IMG/VR virus record: IMGVR_UViG_2700989044_000001
Coordinates: 11,683-75,682 of that record
DNA length: 64,000 bases
Source of the DNA: a virus
Taxonomy: Duplodnaviria; Heunggongvirae; Uroviricota; Caudoviricetes
Strand: one strand, 5' to 3'
The position numbers and the translations under genes were made by a program. Each line of letters starts with the position of its first letter. Position 1 is the stretch's first letter. Shown piece by piece: positions 2,601 to 59,147 of this stretch. The notes beneath the pieces are model-generated. The model saw only the letters and a list, made by a program, of their open reading frames with translations. It was not told the DNA's origin and made no database searches.

Positions 2601-2653
2601 TAATTGTAGAACAGGGCTGGAGAGAATTGCTTGAGAGAATGGGGGTGAGCAAA

Positions 2654-4003
2654 ATGGTTAAGCAATACATTTTATCAATAGATAGTGAAATGAAAGAATA
2701 TTTTGGTGAAAAAATTTCACTCCTTGAAAATCAAATGAAGGATGTTTTCTCTCAAGCAAATCTAGCTATTAATAATTCAAGTTATTTATATTTAATAGAA
2801 AACTTCATAAAAGACATTCTAGATACAAGTATTTCACTAATTGATTATTATGTTGATGGTATTTACAATAGTGGAAAAACAGTCAGTAGGAAAAAATTGA
2901 AATTGCAAAAACAAATCCCAGATGATGGAGAAAGATACGCGTTTACTGATAAAGATAAGTTATTTATTGAAAAATACAAATCAGAAAAATTAGTATCGTT
3001 ACAATTAGAATTACAAAAAGCAATATTTGCATATATCGAAAACAAATTATCTAATGAAATTGATAACAATGATTCAAAAGTTATTGATTTAATTAAAGAA
3101 GACCTAGATAGCTCTTATGAAGAAATTATAGATATTTTAGTTAGAGAAATACTAATGTTATTTAAAAGATCCCAAATAGAAGAGTATAAAAATTTAAATA
3201 TCAAAGAAATATCTATAATCACTGAAGATGAATCACTATGTTGTCCAGTTTGTATAGCTAAGTCTAATAAAATTTTAAAAATAGATGAAGTAATTAACGA
3301 TTTTGGTTTAAAGGATGGTAATCACCATTCATTCTGTAATTATTCGTTAGATCCAATAATTAGTCTTGGTAAAAATGAAGAACTAAATAATGAAGTTAAT
3401 ACAAATATTGATTTTAATATTTTATCTTTATCTTTTAAAAATGTACCAATTGAACTTGAATATAGAATTAATAAGTTAGTAAGTAAATTTAAGATATATG
3501 GTAAGAAGTATTTAAGAGAAATTGAATTTAATTTTGTTAAAAACATCACAGAAGAAAACGATTGGTTTAATTCTGTTAAGTCTCATTATTCAAACTCTGA
3601 AAACAAATCTGCTATTGATAATGTTTTACAGGCTCAGGATGATTTAAAAGATAAAACTATGTCTTTTGATTTTAATGACAAATGTTATATATCTATCAAT
3701 TCGCTCGATTATCAATCTGTAGAAGAAATTATTACTAGAAAACTTATGAATGATTCATTAGTTATTGATAATTGGGTAACTGATAGATATCAAACTAAGA
3801 TAGATAGTAAGTATGTTGGAAATGGTATTGTGATATATCAAGATCCGTTTGTAAATCAACTGGCTCAAGATTCACCTTTTGATTATTTATTAGAATCAAT
3901 TATTGTTTATGTAAATAAACCTAAGCAATTAGAAGTATTAGACAAGGAAATTTTTGATTACATTAAAGAAAAAATCTTCAATGGAATTCAATTTTTTAAG
4001 TAA
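2654..4003 (+). CDS. hypothetical protein (possible head morphogenesis protein, follows portal)
   Basis: ATG at 2654 after GGGGGTGAG RBS (ORF-track start 2627 is an upstream extension); Cys cluster CCPVC; position after portal. Confidence 0.45.
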   Translation: MVKQYILSIDSEMKEYFGEKISLLENQMKDVFSQANLAINNSSYLYLIENFIKDILDTSISLIDYYVDGIYNSGKTVSRKKLKLQKQIPDDGERYAFTDKDKLFIEKYKSEKLVSLQLELQKAIFAYIENKLSNEIDNNDSKVIDLIKEDLDSSYEEIIDILVREILMLFKRSQIEEYKNLNIKEISIITEDESLCCPVCIAKSNKILKIDEVINDFGLKDGNHHSFCNYSLDPIISLGKNEELNNEVNTNIDFNILSLSFKNVPIELEYRINKLVSKFKIYGKKYLREIEFNFVKNITEENDWFNSVKSHYSNSENKSAIDNVLQAQDDLKDKTMSFDFNDKCYISINSLDYQSVEEIITRKLMNDSLVIDNWVTDRYQTKIDSKYVGNGIVIYQDPFVNQLAQDSPFDYLLESIIVYVNKPKQLEVLDKEIFDYIKEKIFNGIQFFK

Positions 4004-4014
4004 GGTGTTTAGAT

Positions 4015-4389
4015 ATGAATGATAATAAAAATTTAGCAATTATTTGTGATATACGAAATAGGACTCCAATTGGAGTAATATGTTCTTGTCCAGTTACAGG
4101 CGATCTAGCTTTCTCAACAGAGAATAAAATGTTAGAAGAAACATTAGAAATAATTCTTAGCAGTAAATCATTTCTTTATTCAAAAGAAAAAGTAAATGAA
4201 CAATCAATGATAAATAGAGAAGAAATCAATCCCAATGATCATTATTACTTGATGGCAATTGATTTCTCTCTGCCATTTCCTTGGAGAATACTAGGAATAA
4301 CTTCTGTAGAAGGGGATATAGAACAAATAGTAGGAAATGCCATTGAAATGCTAAAAGAAGGAGGAAACAATTTTGAAACGATTGATTAA
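4015..4389 (+). CDS. hypothetical protein
   Basis: ORF in co-directional array, RBS-like GGTG upstream. Confidence 0.4.
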   Translation: MNDNKNLAIICDIRNRTPIGVICSCPVTGDLAFSTENKMLEETLEIILSSKSFLYSKEKVNEQSMINREEINPNDHYYLMAIDFSLPFPWRILGITSVEGDIEQIVGNAIEMLKEGGNNFETID

Positions 4390-4687
4390 AAAGTCTAACC
4401 ATGTTGAACCATCTATTCATAATGAGGTGGAAGACAAGATTATACATCCAAACACAAATATAAATGAGAATCAAAACCCATCATTTTTATTAACAAGACA
4501 ACTATTTGCAGATACTGCTTTCACGCCTACTGCAACTATTAGTTATCAATTTGCTAGAAAAATTGAAAATGGTGAGTTTAGTCACCTTGGTTCTATTGAA
4601 GAAGCAAGGGGTAATTGGTCAGAATGGTTGAACGCTTTAGATAGTTTTTTAGAAGAATCAGGTCACAAAGGTTTAAAAAAAAACTAA
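4373..4687 (+). CDS. hypothetical protein with MKRLIKK leader
   Basis: TTG start preceded by AAGGAGGAAACAA; N-terminal MKRLIKKS. Confidence 0.45.
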   Translation: MKRLIKKSNHVEPSIHNEVEDKIIHPNTNINENQNPSFLLTRQLFADTAFTPTATISYQFARKIENGEFSHLGSIEEARGNWSEWLNALDSFLEESGHKGLKKN

Positions 4688-9879: not shown

Positions 9880-10410
9880 GTGGCAATTATGGAACAAGTT
9901 ATTGATTTAATCATACCGTTCATTGCTTTAGCTTTTCTTAGTGTGATGATTGATAAGTTCACTTTGTTTTTAGAGCAAATTGTTCATAAAATCCCACACT
10001 TCCCAGATTACTTTGAATGGTATACCGCTTATGCTGTAGTATTAATTATAAGTACTATGGTTTGTTGGCAGGGTGATTTTAGATTTTTTGACTATTTAAA
10101 TCTTTATTTCCCTGTTTGGTTAGATTATTTTATGAGTGGTTTAGTTATTAGTGGAGGAAGTGCATTTGTTAGAACTCAATTCAGTATGATAGAAGCAATC
10201 CCTTCTACTGTTACTGGCATAGCATCTTCATTTACTAGACTTTTACCAGGTAGAAAAGATAGCAATGTAGATCAATCAAATAACAATTCAACTGCTCCTA
10301 ATAAAAATAGCCAACCTAATGTAACTCCAAACTATACTGAGGAAGAGTATTATCCTCCAGCAACTGAAGAAATAGATACTAACTCAAATCGTTATACTGA
10401 TGATATTTAA
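9880..10410 (+). CDS. membrane protein (holin-like, 3-4 TM segments)
   Basis: Hydrophobic helices, follows lysin genes; RBS AAGAGAGGTGG. Confidence 0.5.
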   Translation: MAIMEQVIDLIIPFIALAFLSVMIDKFTLFLEQIVHKIPHFPDYFEWYTAYAVVLIISTMVCWQGDFRFFDYLNLYFPVWLDYFMSGLVISGGSAFVRTQFSMIEAIPSTVTGIASSFTRLLPGRKDSNVDQSNNNSTAPNKNSQPNVTPNYTEEEYYPPATEEIDTNSNRYTDDI

Positions 10411-47557: not shown

Positions 47558-47613
47558 TTTAAAGAAGTTCCTTATACATACCGATAGTTTTAAAAAAGGA
47601 ACTTTATAATAAC

Positions 47614-47689
47614 GGAGGAGTAGCTCAGTTGGTAGAGCGGCAGATTGAAGATCTGCGCGTCGGGGGTTCAAGTCCCTTTTCCTCCACCA
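47614..47689 (+). tRNA. tRNA-Phe (GAA)
   Basis: GGAGGAGTAGCTCAGTTGGTAGAGC D-arm; anticodon loop TTGAAGA; CCA encoded. Confidence 0.85.
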
Positions 47690-47694
47690 TATAT

Positions 47695-48919: not shown

Positions 48920-48997
48920 AGGGGATTAAAGATAATTGGATAATCGTCTGGCCTCCAAAGCCATGATACGCGGGTTCGATTCCTGCATCCCCTGCCA
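48920..48997 (+). tRNA. tRNA-Trp (CCA) candidate with atypical D-arm
   Basis: Acceptor AGGGGAT/ATCCCCT, anticodon loop CTCCAAA identical to Bacillus tRNA-Trp, T-loop GGTTCGATTCC; no clean D-stem pairing found. Confidence 0.5.
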
Positions 48998-49008
48998 TAA
49001 AAACAAAA

Positions 49009-49041
49009 GGAGAATGCTTAATGAAAATTTTTAGCATCGAT
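49009..49041 (+). repeat. 33-nt direct repeat copy 1 (RBS + MKIFSID mini-ORF start)
   Basis: GGAGAATGCTTAATGAAAATTTTTAGCATCGAT; 31/33 identical to copy 2. Confidence 0.8.
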
Positions 49042-49120
49042 ATCATACCAAGCTCATAAGACTATAAATTCCTTGAGGTATCTTATGAGCTTGGTTTTTA
49101 ACTCAAGGAGGTATGATATC

Positions 49121-49399
49121 ATGAAAAACAGAAGTCTTGATTATTATCGTCATCACAGAAAACGTATTATTGCTAGAAAAGTTTATATTTTTACTCATAT
49201 TTGGGGAAATGAATTATTCGAATATGAGAACAGAGACTATAAACCATTTCCAATTGGAAAATATTCAAAAGGAAAAGTACATTGTAGTTGTAAGGTTTGC
49301 AAATATGACAAGCATTTTGAGATTAAAAAACATAAAGTCAAATCAAAAGAACAAGCAATGAAACAAGAAATTGATGATTATTTTAATAATAAAGAATAA
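49121..49399 (+). CDS. hypothetical basic protein with C-x2-C...C-x2-C motif
   Basis: ATG after AAGGAGGTATGATATC (ORF-track 49073 start rejected). Confidence 0.45.
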   Translation: MKNRSLDYYRHHRKRIIARKVYIFTHIWGNELFEYENRDYKPFPIGKYSKGKVHCSCKVCKYDKHFEIKKHKVKSKEQAMKQEIDDYFNNKE

Positions 49400-49438
49400 C
49401 GTTTTACAATTTTCATGTAATAAGTAAAGGAGAATGTT

Positions 49439-49471
49439 TAATGAAAATTTTTAGCATTGATTTTGAACACC
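49439..49471 (+). repeat. 33-nt direct repeat copy 2 (RBS + MKIFSID mini-ORF start)
   Basis: GGAGAATGTTTAATGAAAATTTTTAGCATTGAT. Confidence 0.8.
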
Positions 49472-49504
49472 TTTAGTGAAGTCATAAACTAAAGGAGAAA
49501 TTAT

Positions 49505-49900
49505 ATGTTACAAGAAGAAGTAATTGACATGATCATGGAAGAGATATCTGAGTTCGTAGAAAATTATATTATTATGTCATCATTGATGCAAGATGCTCTT
49601 TATACTGAGGTCGATCCAGGCAAATCAATAAGATTTTTAACTCGTTCCGAAAGATACGGTAGTATTTATTCTGAGGTAAGACATCAAATAATAAAAAGAG
49701 GTAGAACAAGAATTGCATTCAGCTTTAGATTTCTTAAAGAAGAGGCTGATTATGCTATGGAATTAGTTCATTTATTGGAAAGTTATGTTGAATATAGTTT
49801 TGGTAATTATTCAAATCACTATAGTTGCAACTTTGTTTTAGATGTAGGTTCTAAGAAAAATGGTATTGAACTATTTGAAAAAGTTAGTTTCTTAAAATAG
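49505..49900 (+). CDS. hypothetical protein
   Basis: ORF after AAAGGAGAAATTAT. Confidence 0.45.
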   Translation: MLQEEVIDMIMEEISEFVENYIIMSSLMQDALYTEVDPGKSIRFLTRSERYGSIYSEVRHQIIKRGRTRIAFSFRFLKEEADYAMELVHLLESYVEYSFGNYSNHYSCNFVLDVGSKKNGIELFEKVSFLK

Positions 49901-49927
49901 ACAAAATATTTTGTCTATTTTTTTTAT
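49899..49927 (+). terminator. rho-independent terminator
   Basis: TAGACAAAATATTTTGTCTA palindrome followed by T9. Confidence 0.8.
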
Positions 49928-50008
49928 CGTAAAGTTACGAAAAAAGATTTACAATTTTGACTAAATTTGATATAATCTATATATAACATAAAAATAGAGG
50001 GTGATACA

Positions 50009-50194
50009 GTGGACGAATTGCTGCATAGGAGAGCTACTAAAAACTTAGAAGAATTTAAGTGTCTTCAAGAAGATTTAAGATTATTTGTCTTAGAAAATGG
50101 TAAGGATCCAGATGTATTTATGCAAGAATTTGGTAAATTGTATTTAGATGAAATAACTCCAGAAAAAATTCAAGAAATTATGGATAGGATATAG
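50009..50194 (+). CDS. hypothetical protein
   Basis: GTG start after AGAGGGTGATACA. Confidence 0.4.
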   Translation: MDELLHRRATKNLEEFKCLQEDLRLFVLENGKDPDVFMQEFGKLYLDEITPEKIQEIMDRI

Positions 50195-50202
50195 ATGAGT
50201 TT

Positions 50203-50487
50203 ATGATGGAAAAGAAGCCAAAGAAGCCAAAGTATAAAATGCTAAAAGATTTTAGATTAAAGCTTTTGTTATTTGAAAGCTTAGAAGACAAGCGCATAAA
50301 CTCAATATCAAATATAGATATTTACTATACAAAAGTTAAATCCGGTAAGTTTTTATTTCCATGTAAGAAGAAAATATTAGTTAGACTTACTGTCGAAGAA
50401 GAATTATTTGTTTTAGAATGTATGACAAAAAATTTGGATTTACAAAAACTAACTATGGGATACGAATATGAAATAGAATATAAATGA
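50203..50487 (+). CDS. tandem paralog 1 (EYEIEYK family)
   Basis: Shares the VKSGK...ECMTKNLDLQKL...EYEIEYK core. Confidence 0.5.
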   Translation: MMEKKPKKPKYKMLKDFRLKLLLFESLEDKRINSISNIDIYYTKVKSGKFLFPCKKKILVRLTVEEELFVLECMTKNLDLQKLTMGYEYEIEYK

Positions 50488-50496
50488 GGTTAAATT

Positions 50497-50775
50497 ATGG
50501 TAAATAGGGGTGCGTACGAAAAACTAGCTGATGTACAAATAAAAGGCGGCATCATTAAAGATCTTGTAAAACAAGATATAGAGTCAATATCAGATATAGA
50601 GATTTATCATAAGAAAGTTAAAACTGGTAAACGCTATTTCTCTCGTAAAAAAGACGTAAGAGTTATTAAATTTATTATACGTAGTGAAGAGTTATTTGTT
50701 ATTGAATGTATGACTAAGAACTTAGATTTACAAGAATTAGCAGGCGGAAATGAGTATGAAATAGAATATAAGTGA
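50497..50775 (+). CDS. tandem paralog 2
   Basis: ...VKTGK...ECMTKNLDLQELAGGNEYEIEYK. Confidence 0.5.
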   Translation: MVNRGAYEKLADVQIKGGIIKDLVKQDIESISDIEIYHKKVKTGKRYFSRKKDVRVIKFIIRSEELFVIECMTKNLDLQELAGGNEYEIEYK

Positions 50776-50784
50776 GGGGAAATA

Positions 50785-51069
50785 ATGTCTCAAAGTACAA
50801 CATTCGATGTATTGCATAACGCAGCGATTGAAGCCTTTATTAAAAAGAAAGTTGAAGAAAGAGATTTAAAATCTATATTAGAAGTGGAAGTTCGTTTTAA
50901 ATCAGTTAAAACTGGTAAAAAAGTTTTCTTTTTCTTTTCAAAAAAGAAACAAATAGGTATTGTGAGATTTAAGGTTAATGAAGAGTTGTCTATTATAGAA
51001 CACATGACAAAAGGATTAGATTTTAAAGAATTAGCGGGTAAAAGAGAATATGAAATAATATACGTTTAA
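50785..51069 (+). CDS. tandem paralog 3
   Basis: ...VKTGKK...FKVNEELSIIEHMTKGLDFKELAGKREYEIIYV. Confidence 0.5.
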   Translation: MSQSTTFDVLHNAAIEAFIKKKVEERDLKSILEVEVRFKSVKTGKKVFFFFSKKKQIGIVRFKVNEELSIIEHMTKGLDFKELAGKREYEIIYV

Positions 51070-51093
51070 GAAACAAGCGAGAGGAGAAGAACT

Positions 51094-51393
51094 ATGACTA
51101 AAGGCGAAATGTCTAATAGAGATAAAGTTACTATTTTAAGAAATGCAGCTATTAAATCTTCCGTTAGAAAAAATATTGAACAAAGAGATTTAGAATCCAT
51201 ATTGGAAGTAGAAGTTTGTTTCCAAATAGTTAAAACTGGTGAATACGTTTCACTAGTTGAAAATAGAGATGAAGCAGTAACTATTGTGAGATTTAAAGTC
51301 GATGAAGAATTATCTCTCATAGAGCATATGATAAAGGGATTAGACTTTAAAGAATTAGCGGGTAAAAGAGAATATGAAATAATATATGTTTAA
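51094..51393 (+). CDS. tandem paralog 4
   Basis: ...VKTGE...FKVDEELSLIEHMIKGLDFKELAGKREYEIIYV; 3' ~75 nt about 90% identical to paralog 3. Confidence 0.5.
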   Translation: MTKGEMSNRDKVTILRNAAIKSSVRKNIEQRDLESILEVEVCFQIVKTGEYVSLVENRDEAVTIVRFKVDEELSLIEHMIKGLDFKELAGKREYEIIYV

Positions 51394-51403
51394 GGAGCTT
51401 TTT

Positions 51404-51685
51404 ATGTCTGATAAAAATGATTTCCATAGATTATTTAACAGTTTAGATATACAAAGAATTATGGATACAATTTCAGAGAAAAAATTCAAATCAATATTAG
51501 AAGTAGATATTAATTACAAGAAAATCCCAACGGGTAAAAAATTTCTTTTTTTCCAACGTAAAGAGATGATTTTTATTTTCAAATTTAAAGTTAATGAAGA
51601 GCTTTCAATTATTGAGCATATGACAAAAGGCTTGAATTTCCAAGAATTAACAAAAGGTTGTAAGTATGAAATAGAATATGTATGA
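51404..51685 (+). CDS. tandem paralog 5
   Basis: ...IPTGKK...FKVNEELSIIEHMTKGLNFQELTKGCKYEIEYV; ATG after AAGGAG. Confidence 0.5.
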   Translation: MSDKNDFHRLFNSLDIQRIMDTISEKKFKSILEVDINYKKIPTGKKFLFFQRKEMIFIFKFKVNEELSIIEHMTKGLNFQELTKGCKYEIEYV

Positions 51686-51986
51686 GGTGTTTAAATTGCC
51701 TAACGATAAAGAGATAGATGAATTCTATTTTAGTGCTATTCATTTTTTGATGGAACATTCAGTTAGAGAAGGTCCATTTAAAAGTATTGAAAAGGTAGAA
51801 GTAATAAGTAAAGAATTTAAATATACAAGGTTTTGTTTCACTCTCAAGAAATCTGTAACAGTTGTTAAGTTTGTTGTAAATGAAAGTATACTTGTTGCTG
51901 AAACTTTAATGAATAATTTAAATATTGAGAATTTCTTGAATTCTATATGTGGAAAGGAATACAAATGGGAAATTGAGTATATTTAA
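51678..51986 (+). CDS. tandem paralog 6 (divergent)
   Basis: Divergent but ends KFVVNES...GKEYKWEIEYI. Confidence 0.45.
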   Translation: MYEVFKLPNDKEIDEFYFSAIHFLMEHSVREGPFKSIEKVEVISKEFKYTRFCFTLKKSVTVVKFVVNESILVAETLMNNLNIENFLNSICGKEYKWEIEYI

Positions 51987-52002
51987 TAAGAGGTGAATTG
52001 TT

Positions 52003-52545
52003 ATGGACCTTTATGAAGCTGGTAATATAAAGAGTCTTGAAAACCGGATAAAAGACACAATTTGGGTAGATAGTCAATCTTCTATTCAATATTTAATAAA
52101 AAAGAAGTATTTCCGTAAAAAAGTGATAAAAGATAAAGGTACTAAAAATGAATATGTTAGTTATTTCTTTTTTAGGTATAAAGAAGATAAGATGTTATTT
52201 ATGAAAGAATATTACAAAAAATTATCAAAGACAGATGGTATAAGAGAAATACATGATAAAATTGGTTTATTATTTGGTTACCCGCCAAAGGCTGTGCAAA
52301 AATTTCACTCTAGAGATTATACTTCCAACATTTATTTTAATTTTTGTGGTATGGTTTTCTCTTCTTACCCTGAGACAATTATAGAAGACGTGAAATGGCT
52401 TCTATTAAATAAACCTTTGATAGAAGGAGAAGTTATTGAAATAGAAAAAGGGGTTATCACTCTTAAAAGAGAATCAGTTACAATTGGAGATTATGATTGG
52501 GAAAGAAAGTTGCAAAATTTAGTTTTAAAGTATAGTTCTAATTAG
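52003..52545 (+). CDS. hypothetical protein
   Basis: ORF after AAGAGGTGAATTGTT. Confidence 0.45.
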   Translation: MDLYEAGNIKSLENRIKDTIWVDSQSSIQYLIKKKYFRKKVIKDKGTKNEYVSYFFFRYKEDKMLFMKEYYKKLSKTDGIREIHDKIGLLFGYPPKAVQKFHSRDYTSNIYFNFCGMVFSSYPETIIEDVKWLLLNKPLIEGEVIEIEKGVITLKRESVTIGDYDWERKLQNLVLKYSSN

Positions 52546-52560
52546 AAAGGAGAGTTATTT

Positions 52561-53169
52561 GTGGATTGGGGAGAAACAAAACTTAAAAGCATAAAAGAAG
52601 AGATATTGTATGTGTTTCCGTTTGGTTCAAAAGTTTATGGAAATGTTACAAAAAATTCTGATACAGATTTGATTGTAGTTGTTAAGGGCAACGAAGAATT
52701 GAAATATCAAATATGCGATGATGACGGTGATATTCACGTGTATAGTAGAAAAACGTTTGAGGGATTAATAGATAGACATGATATCTCTGCATTAGAGTGT
52801 ATTTTTTCTAACGATACAGATTTTGATTTTGTGTTAGATTTTGAGAAATTAAGAAGATCGATTTCTGCAGTTGCGTCTAATAGTTTTGTAAAGTGTAAGA
52901 AAAAATTAACTTCAGGCTCAGATTATAACCCGTACATAGCAAAGAAAAGTATGTTTCATTCAATAAGAATACTTGAATTTGGAATTCAAATTGCTAAGTA
53001 TGGTAAAATTACAGATTTTGGTTGCGCCAATCACTATTATGAAATGCTGTTGGAGATGGATGATTGGGGAACTATTAAAAATTATTTTCAACCAATTGCA
53101 AATAAATTGAAATCTGAGTTTAAAAAATTAGCACCTTTAGATAAAGATATATATAACAAAAAATGGTAG
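52561..53169 (+). CDS. nucleotidyltransferase (Pol beta superfamily) domain protein
   Basis: FPFGSKVYGNVTKNSDTDLIVV matches the hG[GS]x9-13Dh[DE]h NTase motif; downstream acidic DDDGD. Confidence 0.5.
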   Translation: MDWGETKLKSIKEEILYVFPFGSKVYGNVTKNSDTDLIVVVKGNEELKYQICDDDGDIHVYSRKTFEGLIDRHDISALECIFSNDTDFDFVLDFEKLRRSISAVASNSFVKCKKKLTSGSDYNPYIAKKSMFHSIRILEFGIQIAKYGKITDFGCANHYYEMLLEMDDWGTIKNYFQPIANKLKSEFKKLAPLDKDIYNKKW

Positions 53170-53185
53170 AAAAGAGTGTGAACAT

Positions 53186-53557
53186 ATGGGTTATTTAAGT
53201 TTTTCTGACGCAAAAGATGAAAGAAAGAAACTAGTGAATGGTTGGACTTATATTGAAAAAGCGCTTCCTGGATCTAAAGATGTATTACAACAAATATGTG
53301 CTATGTTAACTTTAGCCCATTCTCCAACTTCTGTTCGTCAAAATAAAAAGAGTGAAAAGAAGAAAAATCTCGTAGTATATAAGTATCATATTGTTTTTGA
53401 AAATGGTAAGAAATTCGCTACTATTTATATTGATATAAATAATAAAGATAATTATAAAGTTAGATTGTTTTATAAAGATAAGAAACCACATGAAGCAAAA
53501 GTTGTTGGATTCTCTACTTTAGATGAATTACAAGAACATATCGCTGATTTCTTATAA
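53186..53557 (+). CDS. hypothetical protein
   Basis: ORF only. Confidence 0.4.
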   Translation: MGYLSFSDAKDERKKLVNGWTYIEKALPGSKDVLQQICAMLTLAHSPTSVRQNKKSEKKKNLVVYKYHIVFENGKKFATIYIDINNKDNYKVRLFYKDKKPHEAKVVGFSTLDELQEHIADFL

Positions 53558-54471: not shown

Positions 54472-55302
54472 ATGTCTAGAGATCAATTAGCTAAAATAGC
54501 AAAAGAAACAATTGAAATCGTAAAAAAAGGCAGTTATGTAAATAAAAAGAAAAAGACAATATCAGTCAAAGATGATGTGGATTTTTCTGTAAAAAATACT
54601 AAGTTGTATTCACCAGAAGATGGAGATGAGTTACTTAAAAATTTAACTCAAAATGATATTTTACATCAAACAAAATTTGAATGTAAAAATGAAACAACTT
54701 TATTTGCTGCAAAGAGACTATTAGATGAAGGTTTTAATAATGTAGTTGCTTTAAACTTTGCTTCAGCAAGAAATCCAGGTGGAGGTTTCTTAAAAGGGTC
54801 TTCAGCACAGGAAGAAAGTTTAGCAAGGTCTTCTGCATTGTATGATAGTATTTCTCAAATGAGAGAAATGTATGATTACAATTCTAAAAATAAGAGTGGA
54901 TTATACTCTGACTATATGATTTACTCGCCTTCAGTACCTGTATTTAGAGATAACACAGGGGAGTTACTAGAAAAAAGTTTTAATTGCTCCTTTGTTACTT
55001 CTCCGGCTGTTAATTTAAAAGTTTTACAACAGGAAGAAAAACAAAAGGCTAGAGTTGTCATGGAGCAACGAATCAGAAAGATACTTACTGTGGCACTAGA
55101 AAATAATTGTGATGCTATTGTGCTTGGAGCGTTTGGTTGTGGTGTATTTGGAAATAGACCAGTAGATGTAGCTCAGATTTTTAGACAAGTTTTGAATAGT
55201 ACACAGTTTAAGGGCAAATTTAAAAAAGTATCATTTGCAGTTTACGACAAGACTCCTAATAAACAAATTTTTAATGTTTTTAAAAATACCTTTGGGAGAT
55301 AA
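54472..55302 (+). CDS. microbial-type poly(ADP-ribose) glycohydrolase (DUF2263/PARG)
   Basis: LNFASARNPGGGFLKGSSAQEES contains the PARG signature GGG-X7-QEE; ATG after AAGAAAGAGGTATTAAA. Confidence 0.6.
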   Translation: MSRDQLAKIAKETIEIVKKGSYVNKKKKTISVKDDVDFSVKNTKLYSPEDGDELLKNLTQNDILHQTKFECKNETTLFAAKRLLDEGFNNVVALNFASARNPGGGFLKGSSAQEESLARSSALYDSISQMREMYDYNSKNKSGLYSDYMIYSPSVPVFRDNTGELLEKSFNCSFVTSPAVNLKVLQQEEKQKARVVMEQRIRKILTVALENNCDAIVLGAFGCGVFGNRPVDVAQIFRQVLNSTQFKGKFKKVSFAVYDKTPNKQIFNVFKNTFGR

Positions 55303-55309
55303 TTGATAT

Positions 55310-55540
55310 ATGGGTATTACATTATATAAGATGAGGAAAATGATAGAAGATCATGAGTATGTTGAAGAAATGATAGATATGAGTGATTGGTATCTTGGTA
55401 AAGTATATTTACGCCTTAAATGTAATGATAAATACATTGCAGATATTTTAAGTGGTAACAATGAATTAGACGAATACATTAAACAAGTCAGTTTACTTGT
55501 GCCGTATAATTGTACTATTGAATATGATATAGAAACATAA
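55310..55540 (+). CDS. hypothetical protein
   Basis: ORF only. Confidence 0.4.
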   Translation: MGITLYKMRKMIEDHEYVEEMIDMSDWYLGKVYLRLKCNDKYIADILSGNNELDEYIKQVSLLVPYNCTIEYDIET

Positions 55541-55593
55541 GCAAACAAATTTTGTTTGCTTTTTTAATAAACATTTTTAAAGGGGATTTGGGG

Positions 55594-55998
55594 ATGTATA
55601 AGGCTACTGGTAAAATAGTATTTAATCCCGTAACAAGAGAAGGAGATATGCCAGATAAGTTATGGTGGGTGATGGTAGAATGCCCTCATGATATTATCGA
55701 ATATTATAGGTATTGGGTAACTAAAAACAAAAACTTTAAAATAAGTTACCCACTATTTGGATCACATATATCTATCATTAGGAACGAAGAGCCACCTGAT
55801 GAATTTAAACACTTGTGGGGTAAGAGAAATGGTATGGAAGTTGAGTTTACCTATACTCCAGACTTTGAAACAAACGGAAACTACTGGTGGTTAAAAGTGG
55901 ATTGTCCACAATTAGATGATATTAGAGAAGAGTTGGGTTTACCTAGAAAGCCTTTTTTTGATTATCATTTAAGTATAGGTAAACTCATAAGGGTATAA
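55594..55998 (+). CDS. hypothetical protein
   Basis: ATG after AAAGGGGATTTGGGG. Confidence 0.4.
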   Translation: MYKATGKIVFNPVTREGDMPDKLWWVMVECPHDIIEYYRYWVTKNKNFKISYPLFGSHISIIRNEEPPDEFKHLWGKRNGMEVEFTYTPDFETNGNYWWLKVDCPQLDDIREELGLPRKPFFDYHLSIGKLIRV

Positions 55999-56268: not shown

Positions 56269-56556
56269 ATGCCAGGCGCTGTTAGATTAAATGATACGTG
56301 TAGTGGACATGACGATTTTGGTTCAAGACCTAATAATCAAGCGAGTACAGACGTGTTTGTGAATGGTAGAGGTGCTCATAGACAGGGAGATTCTTGGGCT
56401 GTACATTGTAACCCTGTTCCATCATGTCATGGCGGCAATGCTGCAAATGGAAGTCCTAATGTTTTTGTAAATGGAAAACCAATGTGTAGAATTGGTGATA
56501 GCGTGAATTGTGGTTCCACAATGGTTAATGGTTCGAGTAATGTTTTTGTTAATTAA
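56269..56556 (+). CDS. PAAR-repeat domain protein
   Basis: VFVNGRGAHRQGDSW...C...VFVNGKPMCRIGDSVNCGS...VFVN repeats typical of PAAR spike-tip proteins; ATG after AGAGGTGAAAG. Confidence 0.6.
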   Translation: MPGAVRLNDTCSGHDDFGSRPNNQASTDVFVNGRGAHRQGDSWAVHCNPVPSCHGGNAANGSPNVFVNGKPMCRIGDSVNCGSTMVNGSSNVFVN

Positions 56557-58667: not shown

Positions 58668-59147
58668 ATGATAACAGCTTTTAGAAGTGATTTAACTAAA
58701 TTGCAAAACGTAGATTATATAGTGAACGCTGCGAATGCAAAAGGTCCCATGGATTCTGGAATAGCTGGGGCAATAAGAATAAATGGTGGAACTGAAATAC
58801 AAGATGCTGCAATGTTAATATGTTCTAAATTAAATTATCAACCTGGAGATATTTATGTTACACATGCTGGTAGATTATCATTTAAGAAAATAATTCACCT
58901 TGTAACAATGGAAAACCCAGGTGGAGTAACTTCATATGATATTGTTAGAAAATGCCTTCAGAATTTAATTTTATACTGTAAAGTTAATAATATTAAGAAA
59001 ATCGCTTTACCAGCTTTAGGTACAGGTGTAGGTGGTTTAGATATTGATAAAATAGCAGGAATTTTTAAAGAAATATTGGGTAGTGTAGAAGAAATAGAGT
59101 TTTTAGTTGTAGATATTGATCCAATGTTTATTTACAATTTTAAATGA
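58668..59147 (+). CDS. Macro domain protein (ADP-ribose binding/hydrolase)
   Basis: YIVNAANAKGPMDSGIAGAI matches the macro-domain VNAAN...G..GAI signature; RBS AAAGGCGG. Confidence 0.55.
   Translation: MITAFRSDLTKLQNVDYIVNAANAKGPMDSGIAGAIRINGGTEIQDAAMLICSKLNYQPGDIYVTHAGRLSFKKIIHLVTMENPGGVTSYDIVRKCLQNLILYCKVNNIKKIALPALGTGVGGLDIDKIAGIFKEILGSVEEIEFLVVDIDPMFIYNFK

Follow-up and report, generated by a model that had tools for sequence, protein, structure and literature searches.

What do six small, mutually related genes, set head to tail close to one end of a giant phage genome, contribute to infection? The question is raised by gp102–gp107, which occupy positions 50203–51986 of a 64,000-nucleotide (nt) stretch of the IMG/VR virus record IMGVR_UViG_2700989044_000001, referred to here as the window (window position equals record position minus 11,682). 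Region 49000–53500 of the window is 100% identical to Bacillus phage G (JN638751.1, Donellivirus gee, 497.5 kb), and the six same-strand open reading frames (ORFs) likewise match gp102–gp107 of that record with 100% identity; GenBank gives no product for any of them. To our knowledge, no other 'megaphage' has been brought into culture, and a function is lacking for two thirds of the phage G genes. We find that gp102–gp107 are six intact, separately translated paralogs of one small soluble protein family of ~95 amino acids (aa). As to what the family does, our tentative answer, which we hold at a little under an even chance, is that it supplies early-expressed, fast-turnover binding modules for host takeover or counter-defence. 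This reading is drawn from context, namely the promoter, the genome-end position, the association with tRNA islands, and the neighbouring genes of counter-defence type.

Six intact paralogs in tandem

The six genes, all on the + strand and with intact reading frames, encode 92–99 aa each and run head to tail as gp102 (50203–50487; GenBank start 50206), gp103 (50497–50775), gp104 (50785–51069), gp105 (51094–51393), gp106 (51404–51685), and gp107 (51696–51986). Every one of them matched PHROG 15464, a phage orthologous group without assigned function that is in effect the same family, over profile positions 1–92 of 92 and with E values from 5e-33 to 6e-40 (8e-37, 2e-38, 6e-40, 4e-38, 1e-39, and 5e-33, in gene order). 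Together with their end-to-end alignment, this common membership bears out the tandem, diversified array of six small paralogs that a first-pass annotation of the window had described. The separate ribosome-binding sites that it also claimed were recovered in part: a Shine-Dalgarno sequence is clear for five of the six genes, but weak before gp102 and missing at ATG 51678, where the sixth start had been placed. That ATG overlaps copy 5 by 8 nt, and gp107 most likely begins instead at the GenBank start, TTG 51696, because GAGGTG (51684–51689) lies 7 nt upstream. Similarly, gp106 most plausibly starts at ATG 51404 and not at the GenBank ATG 51386, since AAGGAG precedes the former at 51393–51398. 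Spacers within the array measure 9, 9, 24, and 10 nt, followed by 10 nt with the gp107 start at TTG 51696.

Aligned end to end, the copies share 23–62% aa identity; the mean rises from 16% for the N-terminal helix, the most variable segment, through 54% for helix alpha2 to 70% for the last strand, as expected from the conserved C-terminal half and divergent N-terminus noted at first pass. The N-terminal part is nonetheless homologous, since profile matches cover positions 1–91. Divergence spared helix alpha2, the last strand, and the hydrophobic core, and remodelled the N-terminal helix, loop lengths, and net charge (+6.5 to −3.4). The sixth copy, gp107, is indeed the most diverged, with 23–30% identity to the other five. 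Synonymous divergence (dS, Nei–Gojobori) exceeds 1, that is, it is saturated, in 14 of the 15 paralog pairs; the sole pair with a usable value is gp104/gp105 (dS 0.74, nonsynonymous divergence dN 0.26, omega 0.35), and the pairwise dN/dS range of 0.2–0.8 rests on saturated dS. These values therefore point to old copies under overall purifying selection. An apparent excess of nonsynonymous over synonymous differences at the hairpin tip of gp104 versus gp105 (pN 0.58 > pS 0.37) was set aside as a candidate for diversifying selection, the 15-codon window being too short for significance.

The genes gp104 and gp105, which share 62% aa identity, end in direct repeats. Their last 113 nt are 88% identical, and the last 48 nt (51022–51069 in gp104, paired with 51346–51393 in gp105, both + strand) agree at 47 of 48 positions with a perfect run of 41 nt, in keeping with the near-identical 3' ends originally reported for copies 3 and 4. 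Permutation gave P = 2.5e-4 for this tract over the whole gene and P = 0.011 within the conserved half; third codon positions are identical at 14 of 15 sites inside it versus 11 of 20 in the 60 nt before. We read the shared 3' end as a short gene-conversion tract, through which gp104 and gp105 continue to exchange sequence. Of the 'recent duplication or gene conversion' first proposed, the conversion stands, whereas recent duplication does not, with dS at 0.74 for this pair and saturated elsewhere. The array is also coding and not a clustered regularly interspaced short palindromic repeat (CRISPR) locus, as had been stated: its repeat unit of ~290 nt is a whole gene, the units are 62–88% identical, all are ORFs with ribosome-binding sites, and Rfam returned no family match inside the array.

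Distribution, turnover, and genomic setting

Strong matches to the family are confined to phage G and to phage-G-like metagenomic contigs. A tblastn search of 50,697 phage records gave no match beyond phage G, a profile run against 5.8 billion proteins recovered the six phage G copies and nothing else, and an IMG/VR search with the family alignment A1 yielded no confirmed match. An exhaustive hidden Markov model (HMM) search of 1.84 billion cluster representatives returned 19 matches at E < 1e-3, four of which stand for phage G copies and 15 (P0007–P0021) for full-length relatives of 91–116 aa outside phage G. Thirteen of these 15 were located on contigs, P0014 being placed by an HMM match on the contig of P0007. 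All located relatives sit on phage-G-like contigs that carry, in phage G order, ribonucleotide reductase beta, an RsfA/Myb factor, tRNA arrays, and homologues of gp97 and gp100, as well as the gp109 nucleotidyltransferase (NTase), microbial PARG, PAAR, GMP reductase, Macro, ThyA, and DHFR.

Copy number, taken from an HMM scan of six-frame ORFs, differs widely among these phages. A single copy is present at the contig loci L002/3/4, L005, L006, L007, L060/61, L062, and L063/64, and at least two tandem copies are found on the 1.4-kb contig of L008. Two copies occur in L010/L011 (the L011 contig stops inside its second) and three in their close relative L059, with a divergent extra copy in both L010 and L059; L012 holds three, one of them divergent, and phage G six. 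The family has been kept in at least 11 diverged phage lineages. In a neighbour-joining tree of 23 members (200 bootstraps), gp102–gp106 form one clade (64%) with L009_P0013 as its sister; inside this clade gp104 pairs with gp105 (98%), gp106 joins them (92%), and gp102 pairs with gp103 (84%). The remaining copy, gp107, falls outside, equally near to metagenomic members (39%) and to its neighbours in the array. Phage G therefore inherited at least one older copy and amplified another lineage five-fold.

Turnover at the locus shows in a comparison of two close relatives. The genes that flank it in L059 and L010/L011 are 92–100% identical, and L059 alone has P0010 as an additional copy in first place. 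The second copy, which L059 and L010 share as orthologues, is 68% identical (dN 0.19, dS 0.44), against dN ≤ 0.045 in 12 neighbouring genes, and the third copy is 99% identical; the differing stretch spans L059 3475–4355 versus L010 414–985. These differences therefore mark the family locus as a local hotspot of recombination or replacement, at which copies are gained and lost and one allele gives way to another. A chimeric L010 copy generated by unequal crossover was considered and rejected, L010 copy A being ~80% identical to L059 copy 2 throughout.

The array maps close to a physical end of the phage G genome. The GenBank record is rotated to begin at terL, whereas the actual genome is a linear molecule of 499,946 bp whose two ends carry the same 127-bp repeat (43.31% GC), with terL at 440,572–442,254 (PMC12484599). 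GenBank gp1 covers 1–1683, and the terL mapping therefore puts the physical right end at GenBank 59,375, that is, window 47,693. The 127 bp at 47567–47693 (unstranded) have a GC content of exactly 43.31% and constitute the terminal repeat that forms the physical left end. With physical position 1 at window 47,567, segments 1–406 and 611–986 are 52.0% and 57.7% A+T, compared with the published 52% and 58% (PMC12484599); a blind scan of 6,000 offsets found the best fit at 47,560–47,575. The array accordingly lies at physical 2,637–4,420 and its promoter ~2.4 kb from the left end, assuming no indel in the first 4 kb. Three further observations concern this end. The terminal repeat holds a complete tRNA-Phe gene (47614–47689). 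Within the window, the GenBank record fuses the physical right end (gp84–gp90, tRNA-Cys, tRNA-Asp) to the left end (tRNA-Phe, Tyr, Glu, Thr, and so on). Finally, the predicted 'OriC' segments 1–406 and 611–986 (PMC12484599) coincide with GC-rich tRNA genes.

Upstream of the array, an intrinsic-terminator-like hairpin on the + strand (49894–49925, with a 12-bp stem at 49894–49921 running into a U-tract) closes the gp100 unit; it folds at −10.6 kcal/mol (z = −6.0), and none of 200 shuffles folds as well. It is followed by a putative sigma-A/sigma-70-type promoter (49948–49976, + strand) of the form TTTACA, 17 nt, and TGnTATAAT, an extended −10 element that reads TGATATAAT in phage G. With 11 of 12 consensus positions plus the TG, this was the top score in a 10-kb scan and the sole such site in the 64-kb window. 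L059 and L011 show the arrangement TTTACA-17-TGATATAAT followed by ATATAACATA ahead of their arrays too, with a differing spacer sequence, and a hairpin with a T-run occupies the equivalent site in both. The conserved hairpin, promoter hexamers, and ATATAACATA can thus be taken as a phylogenetic footprint of predicted transcription signals.

The first ORF of the predicted operon, gp101 (50009–50194, + strand, 61 aa), is not a family member and had no Pfam or PHROG match above thresholds. After the array come gp108 (180 aa, no assigned function) and gp109, a Pol-beta-type NTase (52561–53169) with NTase matches in both Pfam and PHROG; this pair (52003–53169, + strand) is preceded by spacers of 16 and 15 nt, respectively, and is probably co-transcribed with the array. 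The next + strand terminator lies at 55539–55561, and the predicted operon therefore comprises gp101, gp102–gp107, gp108, and gp109 through gp114 to gp115. A cluster of counter-signalling-type genes is found downstream of the array: gp114 (54472–55299) is a microbial-type PARG (E 3e-53), gp116 (55594–55995) has a weak Pfam match to 2H phosphoesterase, gp118 (56269–56553) is a PAAR protein, and gp122 (58668–59147) a Macro domain. HHpred has assigned gp116 to Acb1 (PMC12484599).

In relatives, the family gene usually lies within or at the edge of a tRNA-gene island, and this embedding is the ancestral arrangement. L002 shows tRNA-Lys, 24 nt containing AAGGAG, the ORF, 4 nt, and tRNA-His (9904–10387); the ORF stands between tRNA-Tyr and tRNA-Gln in L007 (607–1083), between tRNA-Lys and tRNA-Tyr in L012 (250–746), and between two tRNA-Ser genes in L061 (17–500). 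It precedes tRNA-His in L005 and L063 (401–780 in the latter) and follows tRNA-Leu in L006. Packing in L002, L007, L012, L061, and L063 is tight, about 22–25 nt after one tRNA and 1–5 nt before the next, which leaves no room for a promoter or terminator; we therefore infer that these ORFs are co-transcribed with the tRNAs. As far as gene order can tell, this implies tRNA-mRNA-tRNA polycistronic precursors in which the mRNA ends would be made by tRNA processing. The phage G array lies 1.2 kb past the last tRNA of its island (48921–48994).

Several of the tRNA genes are unusual in themselves. The one at 48921–48994, the eighth, is tRNA-Trp in GenBank and scored 37 bits in Rfam (gathering score 29) with no ARAGORN call. 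A tRNA with a four-base anticodon (gata, ARAGORN 'tRNA-???') and one with a CTA anticodon (amber-reading, labelled Pyl) occur in relatives, where unusual tRNAs are found at L011 3682–3755, L059 1712–1785, and L005 6582–6654. In phage G, a 'tRNA-other (tta)' adjoins a tmRNA gene (phage G record 411932–412006). All of these may be suppressor or frameshift tRNAs.

Predicted fold, candidate functions, and neighbouring genes

AlphaFold2 modelled gp102 from 6 sequences (predicted local distance difference test, pLDDT, 81.8; predicted template modelling score, pTM, 0.68) and gp104 from 21 (pLDDT 86.2, pTM 0.72). The family is confidently predicted to adopt an alpha-beta-beta-alpha-alpha-beta fold, made of a long N-terminal helix (residues 2–25), a long hairpin (strands 31–47 and 51–64, with a low-confidence tip), two helices (66–75 and 80–84), and a C-terminal strand (88–93). 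A Foldseek search of the PDB gave no match at E ≤ 1e-3 (template modelling score ≤ 0.42), and a PDB sequence profile search gave nothing below E 0.2. No Pfam family was common to more than one of 21 members; YxiF (E 0.006), MinC_N_1 (E 0.015), and DBD_HTH (E 0.17), each hit by one member below curated cut-offs, were discarded. This confident model without a match to any characterised structural or repeat protein, together with copy numbers of 1, 2, 3, and 6, speaks against the uniform-copy structural repeat protein that the first-pass annotation had named as the contrary possibility.

Two remote relatives were picked independently by structure and profile comparison. Against BFVD, Foldseek retrieved Gp103 (the family itself) and the unannotated phage G proteins Gp544 (E 2.9e-3, probability 0.99) and Gp483 (E 0.15); when 134 small ORFs drawn from 114 kb of the phage G genome were compared with the family profile by hhalign, gp544 reached 50% over 64 columns and gp483 16%, every other ORF outside the array scoring at most 1.2% probability. 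The gene gp544 lies at L058 35379–35639 (phage G record 410379–410639) in the second tRNA island of phage G, where it has tRNA-Ser(gct) and tRNA-Asn on its two sides, and gp483 lies at L058 132–419. Family members have negative grand average of hydropathy (GRAVY) values and no visible signal peptide or hydrophobic segment. The phage G copies range in net charge from +6.5 to −3.4, and relatives reach −12.4, a width that points away from a common nucleic-acid-binding surface and towards a variable interaction face.

How, then, would such a family serve host takeover or counter-defence? Host sigma-A RNA polymerase would transcribe the array from the near-consensus extended −10 promoter, whose location 2.4 kb from the physical left end suggests early expression. 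Each paralog could be a small module, constant in its scaffold and variable on one face, that binds a host protein and blocks or redirects it, and the diverged copies may broaden or partition the target range, for instance to cover variant forms of a defence or housekeeping factor of the host. The family would thereby be encoded in a tRNA-rich, 'anti-defence island' part of the genome. Fixed-end phages often place early host-takeover or anti-restriction genes at their ends, as in T7 gene 0.3, the T5 pre-early region, and the SPO1 terminal module; the parallel with phage G is one of analogy. A precedent for a host-takeover or counter-defence role comes from T5/SP15, in whose tRNA-rich region experiments have defined an anti-defence island that encodes Rad, other small inhibitors, and a protective tRNA (bioRxiv 10.1101/2023.03.15.532788). 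A narrower proposal, to which we give a low probability, assigns the family to a new, tRNA-island class of counter-defence proteins, in which a small alpha/beta scaffold blocks an infection-activated host effector and the six copies form a panel against effector variants. The most attractive targets would then be tRNA-targeting nucleases, acting alongside the co-transcribed phage tRNAs; the phage G copies would sit in the first operon at the left end of the genome, and the mRNA of relatives would be freed by RNase P and RNase Z processing.

A number of points weigh against a role in host takeover or counter-defence. No member could be linked by sequence or structure to a known inhibitor, host target, or defence system: PADLOC defence models gave no family match (no dedicated anti-defence HMM library was searched), and annotated anti-defence proteins (Acr, Tad, Acb, Gad, Had, Ocr, and others) showed no structural match in PDB or BFVD and no PDB sequence match below E 0.2. 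Pairwise dN/dS detected no positive selection among the array copies. Of the rapid diversification claimed at first pass, the fast turnover between L059 and L010 is real, and the phage G copies are old; the anti-defence or host-range function suggested there would follow from context. Early timing is deduced from promoter consensus and map position rather than from transcripts, and also depends on which genome end enters the cell first. The synteny with tRNA and counter-defence genes reflects shared ancestry in one phage lineage and is not independent evidence. Lastly, gp102–gp107 may have a role in the virion.

The same tRNA context and predicted fold could also suit KH-like RNA or tRNA binders that chaperone, protect, or help process phage tRNA transcripts. 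The topology is that of a type II KH domain, as in NusA, ribosomal protein S3, Era, and KhpA/KhpB, the ORF abuts tRNA genes at distances of 4–25 nt in seven relative lineages and hence would be co-transcribed with them, and the remote relative gp544 lies in a tRNA island. The resemblance, however, extends to the predicted fold only. The GXXG loop is absent in all 21 aligned members, which have TKGLD, TKNLD, NNLN, NDLS, GDMD, or similar instead; no KH Pfam model matched in 21 members, even at E = 1; the variable and often acidic net charge (+6.5 to −12.4) is incompatible with a common nucleic-acid-binding surface; and position alone is a weak argument, since many unrelated small ORFs lie among the same tRNA genes. 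We therefore judge this alternative unlikely. An early reprogramming of host or phage expression by small proteins that bind DNA or modulate transcription, such as RNA polymerase or nucleoid binders, would agree with the early-type promoter and genome-end location, with the basic isoelectric points (pI 8.6–9.5) of four of the six phage G copies, with the nearby RsfA-like factors gp84 and gp85, and with the tendency of phage G to expand regulator families, RsfA-like factors and ~35 zinc ribbons among them (PMC7824862). Yet members outside phage G are mostly acidic (pI 4.3–6.6), and no helix-turn-helix, ribbon-helix-helix, AbrB, or other DNA-binding signature was found in the family, apart from the lone DBD_HTH hit, which makes such a function quite improbable; it would, moreover, overlap with host takeover if the target were a host protein such as RNA polymerase.

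We likewise give little credence to a homo- or hetero-oligomeric ring or scaffold, similar to ring-building-motif or OsmC proteins, with the six paralogs at distinct positions. The predicted alpha-beta-beta-alpha-beta core has the ring-building-motif topology, the hairpin strands of 14–17 residues are unusually long for a 95-aa monomer, and tight translational coupling would suit stoichiometric production. But a single copy suffices in relatives, so that a six-part hetero-complex is not ancestral; no signal peptide or hydrophobic segment accompanies the negative GRAVY; and the conserved Cys pair is absent, so that the family is not OsmC/Ohr-like. Less probable still are ORFan duplicates, functionless or near-neutral, that a very large, gene-rich genome happens to have kept. 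Patchy presence and copy number and the failure to detect a function or homologues outside the lineage would be compatible with drift of this kind, whereas six intact frames with Shine-Dalgarno sequences despite saturated synonymous sites, dN < dS, a confident fold prediction with a core conserved across 23 members, and retention in at least 11 diverged lineages would not.

Some neighbouring genes recur beside the family without forming a fixed partnership. The NTase gp109 is 57–68% identical among phage-G-like phages, and homologues (38–62% identity) exist in many other large viral contigs (loci L013–L057); that of L020 has a bacterial-looking context, beside a chemoreceptor-like gene. A fixed HEPN/MNT-type module with gp109 was rejected, 45 NTase loci having no family member within 10 kb; the family loci L002, L005, and L007 have no NTase nearby. 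Directly 3' of the family gene, relatives encode a conserved 139–141-aa protein with a CxxC...CxxC zinc-ribbon motif (L062 10074–10493, L059 4367–4786, L010 997–1416, L012 2542–2967), which precedes the NTase in L062, L059, and L010. A role for gp108 as its conserved counterpart was likewise dismissed, as gp108 shows no clear homology to this protein. Genes at L002 7285–7758, 1–203, and 4994–5662, just upstream of the tRNA array in this contig of P0016, code for a DNA mimic of the DMP19 family, a protein with a SIR2 domain, and a sortase.

Comparison with known systems

The genes and their PHROG were already public, the PHROG entry giving neither structure nor context; what the present analysis adds is the set of relatives in metagenomes, how copy number varies among them, the fold, the embedding among tRNA genes, and the place at the genome end. 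Neither gp102–gp107 nor a paralog array is mentioned in the main text of PMC7824862 or PMC12484599. Giant phages are already known to expand small accessory proteins in tandem within single lineages, and the family and its fold are without characterised relatives. The array is a compact, well-delimited family suited to experiments, with a confident predicted fold, one to six copies, a hypervariable allele, a conversion tract, and a defined promoter. Should host interference or anti-defence prove to be its role, phage tRNA islands would double as counter-defence islands beyond the T5 group, and the family would provide a new small inhibitor scaffold; if not, it would count as an unremarkable expansion, confined to one lineage, of an ORFan protein in a phage with a large genome.

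Among proteins of similar topology, the ring-building-motif proteins PrgH, PrgK, YscD, and FliF recur among the weak structural matches, but they are membrane-anchored or periplasmic and belong to secretion or flagellar loci, whereas the array family is found in a putatively early or tRNA-associated phage region. OsmC/Ohr peroxidases differ in being intertwined dimers of ~140 aa with a catalytic Cys pair. The host-takeover modules of SPO1 (gp37–60), T7 (gene 0.3), and T5 (pre-early region) are alike in having early genes at a genome end under host-type promoters, but no homology was found to any early protein of these phages. The T5/SP15 Anti-Defence Island (Rad, ORF71–73, tRNA-Tyr) is alike in having small ORFs among phage tRNA genes, several of which counteract host defences in T5/SP15 (bioRxiv 10.1101/2023.03.15.532788); Rad, however, is a 189-aa Toprim/RNase-like protein with no kinship to the family in sequence or fold, from another phage lineage that infects another host phylum.

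Within phage G itself, lineage-specific expansions have been described for ~35 zinc-ribbon proteins and for RsfA-like Myb factors (Iyer et al. 2021, PMC7824862). They reveal the same tendency of this genome to amplify small protein families, but have recognisable domains and are scattered, whereas the array is a compact tandem with an ORFan fold. As a mode of amplification, the array also recalls poxvirus-type 'gene accordions', in which a host-interaction gene is amplified in tandem into near-identical, transient copies. The copies of the phage G array, in contrast, are ancient, with saturated dS, and individually maintained, and only a 48-nt tract of two of them is near-identical.

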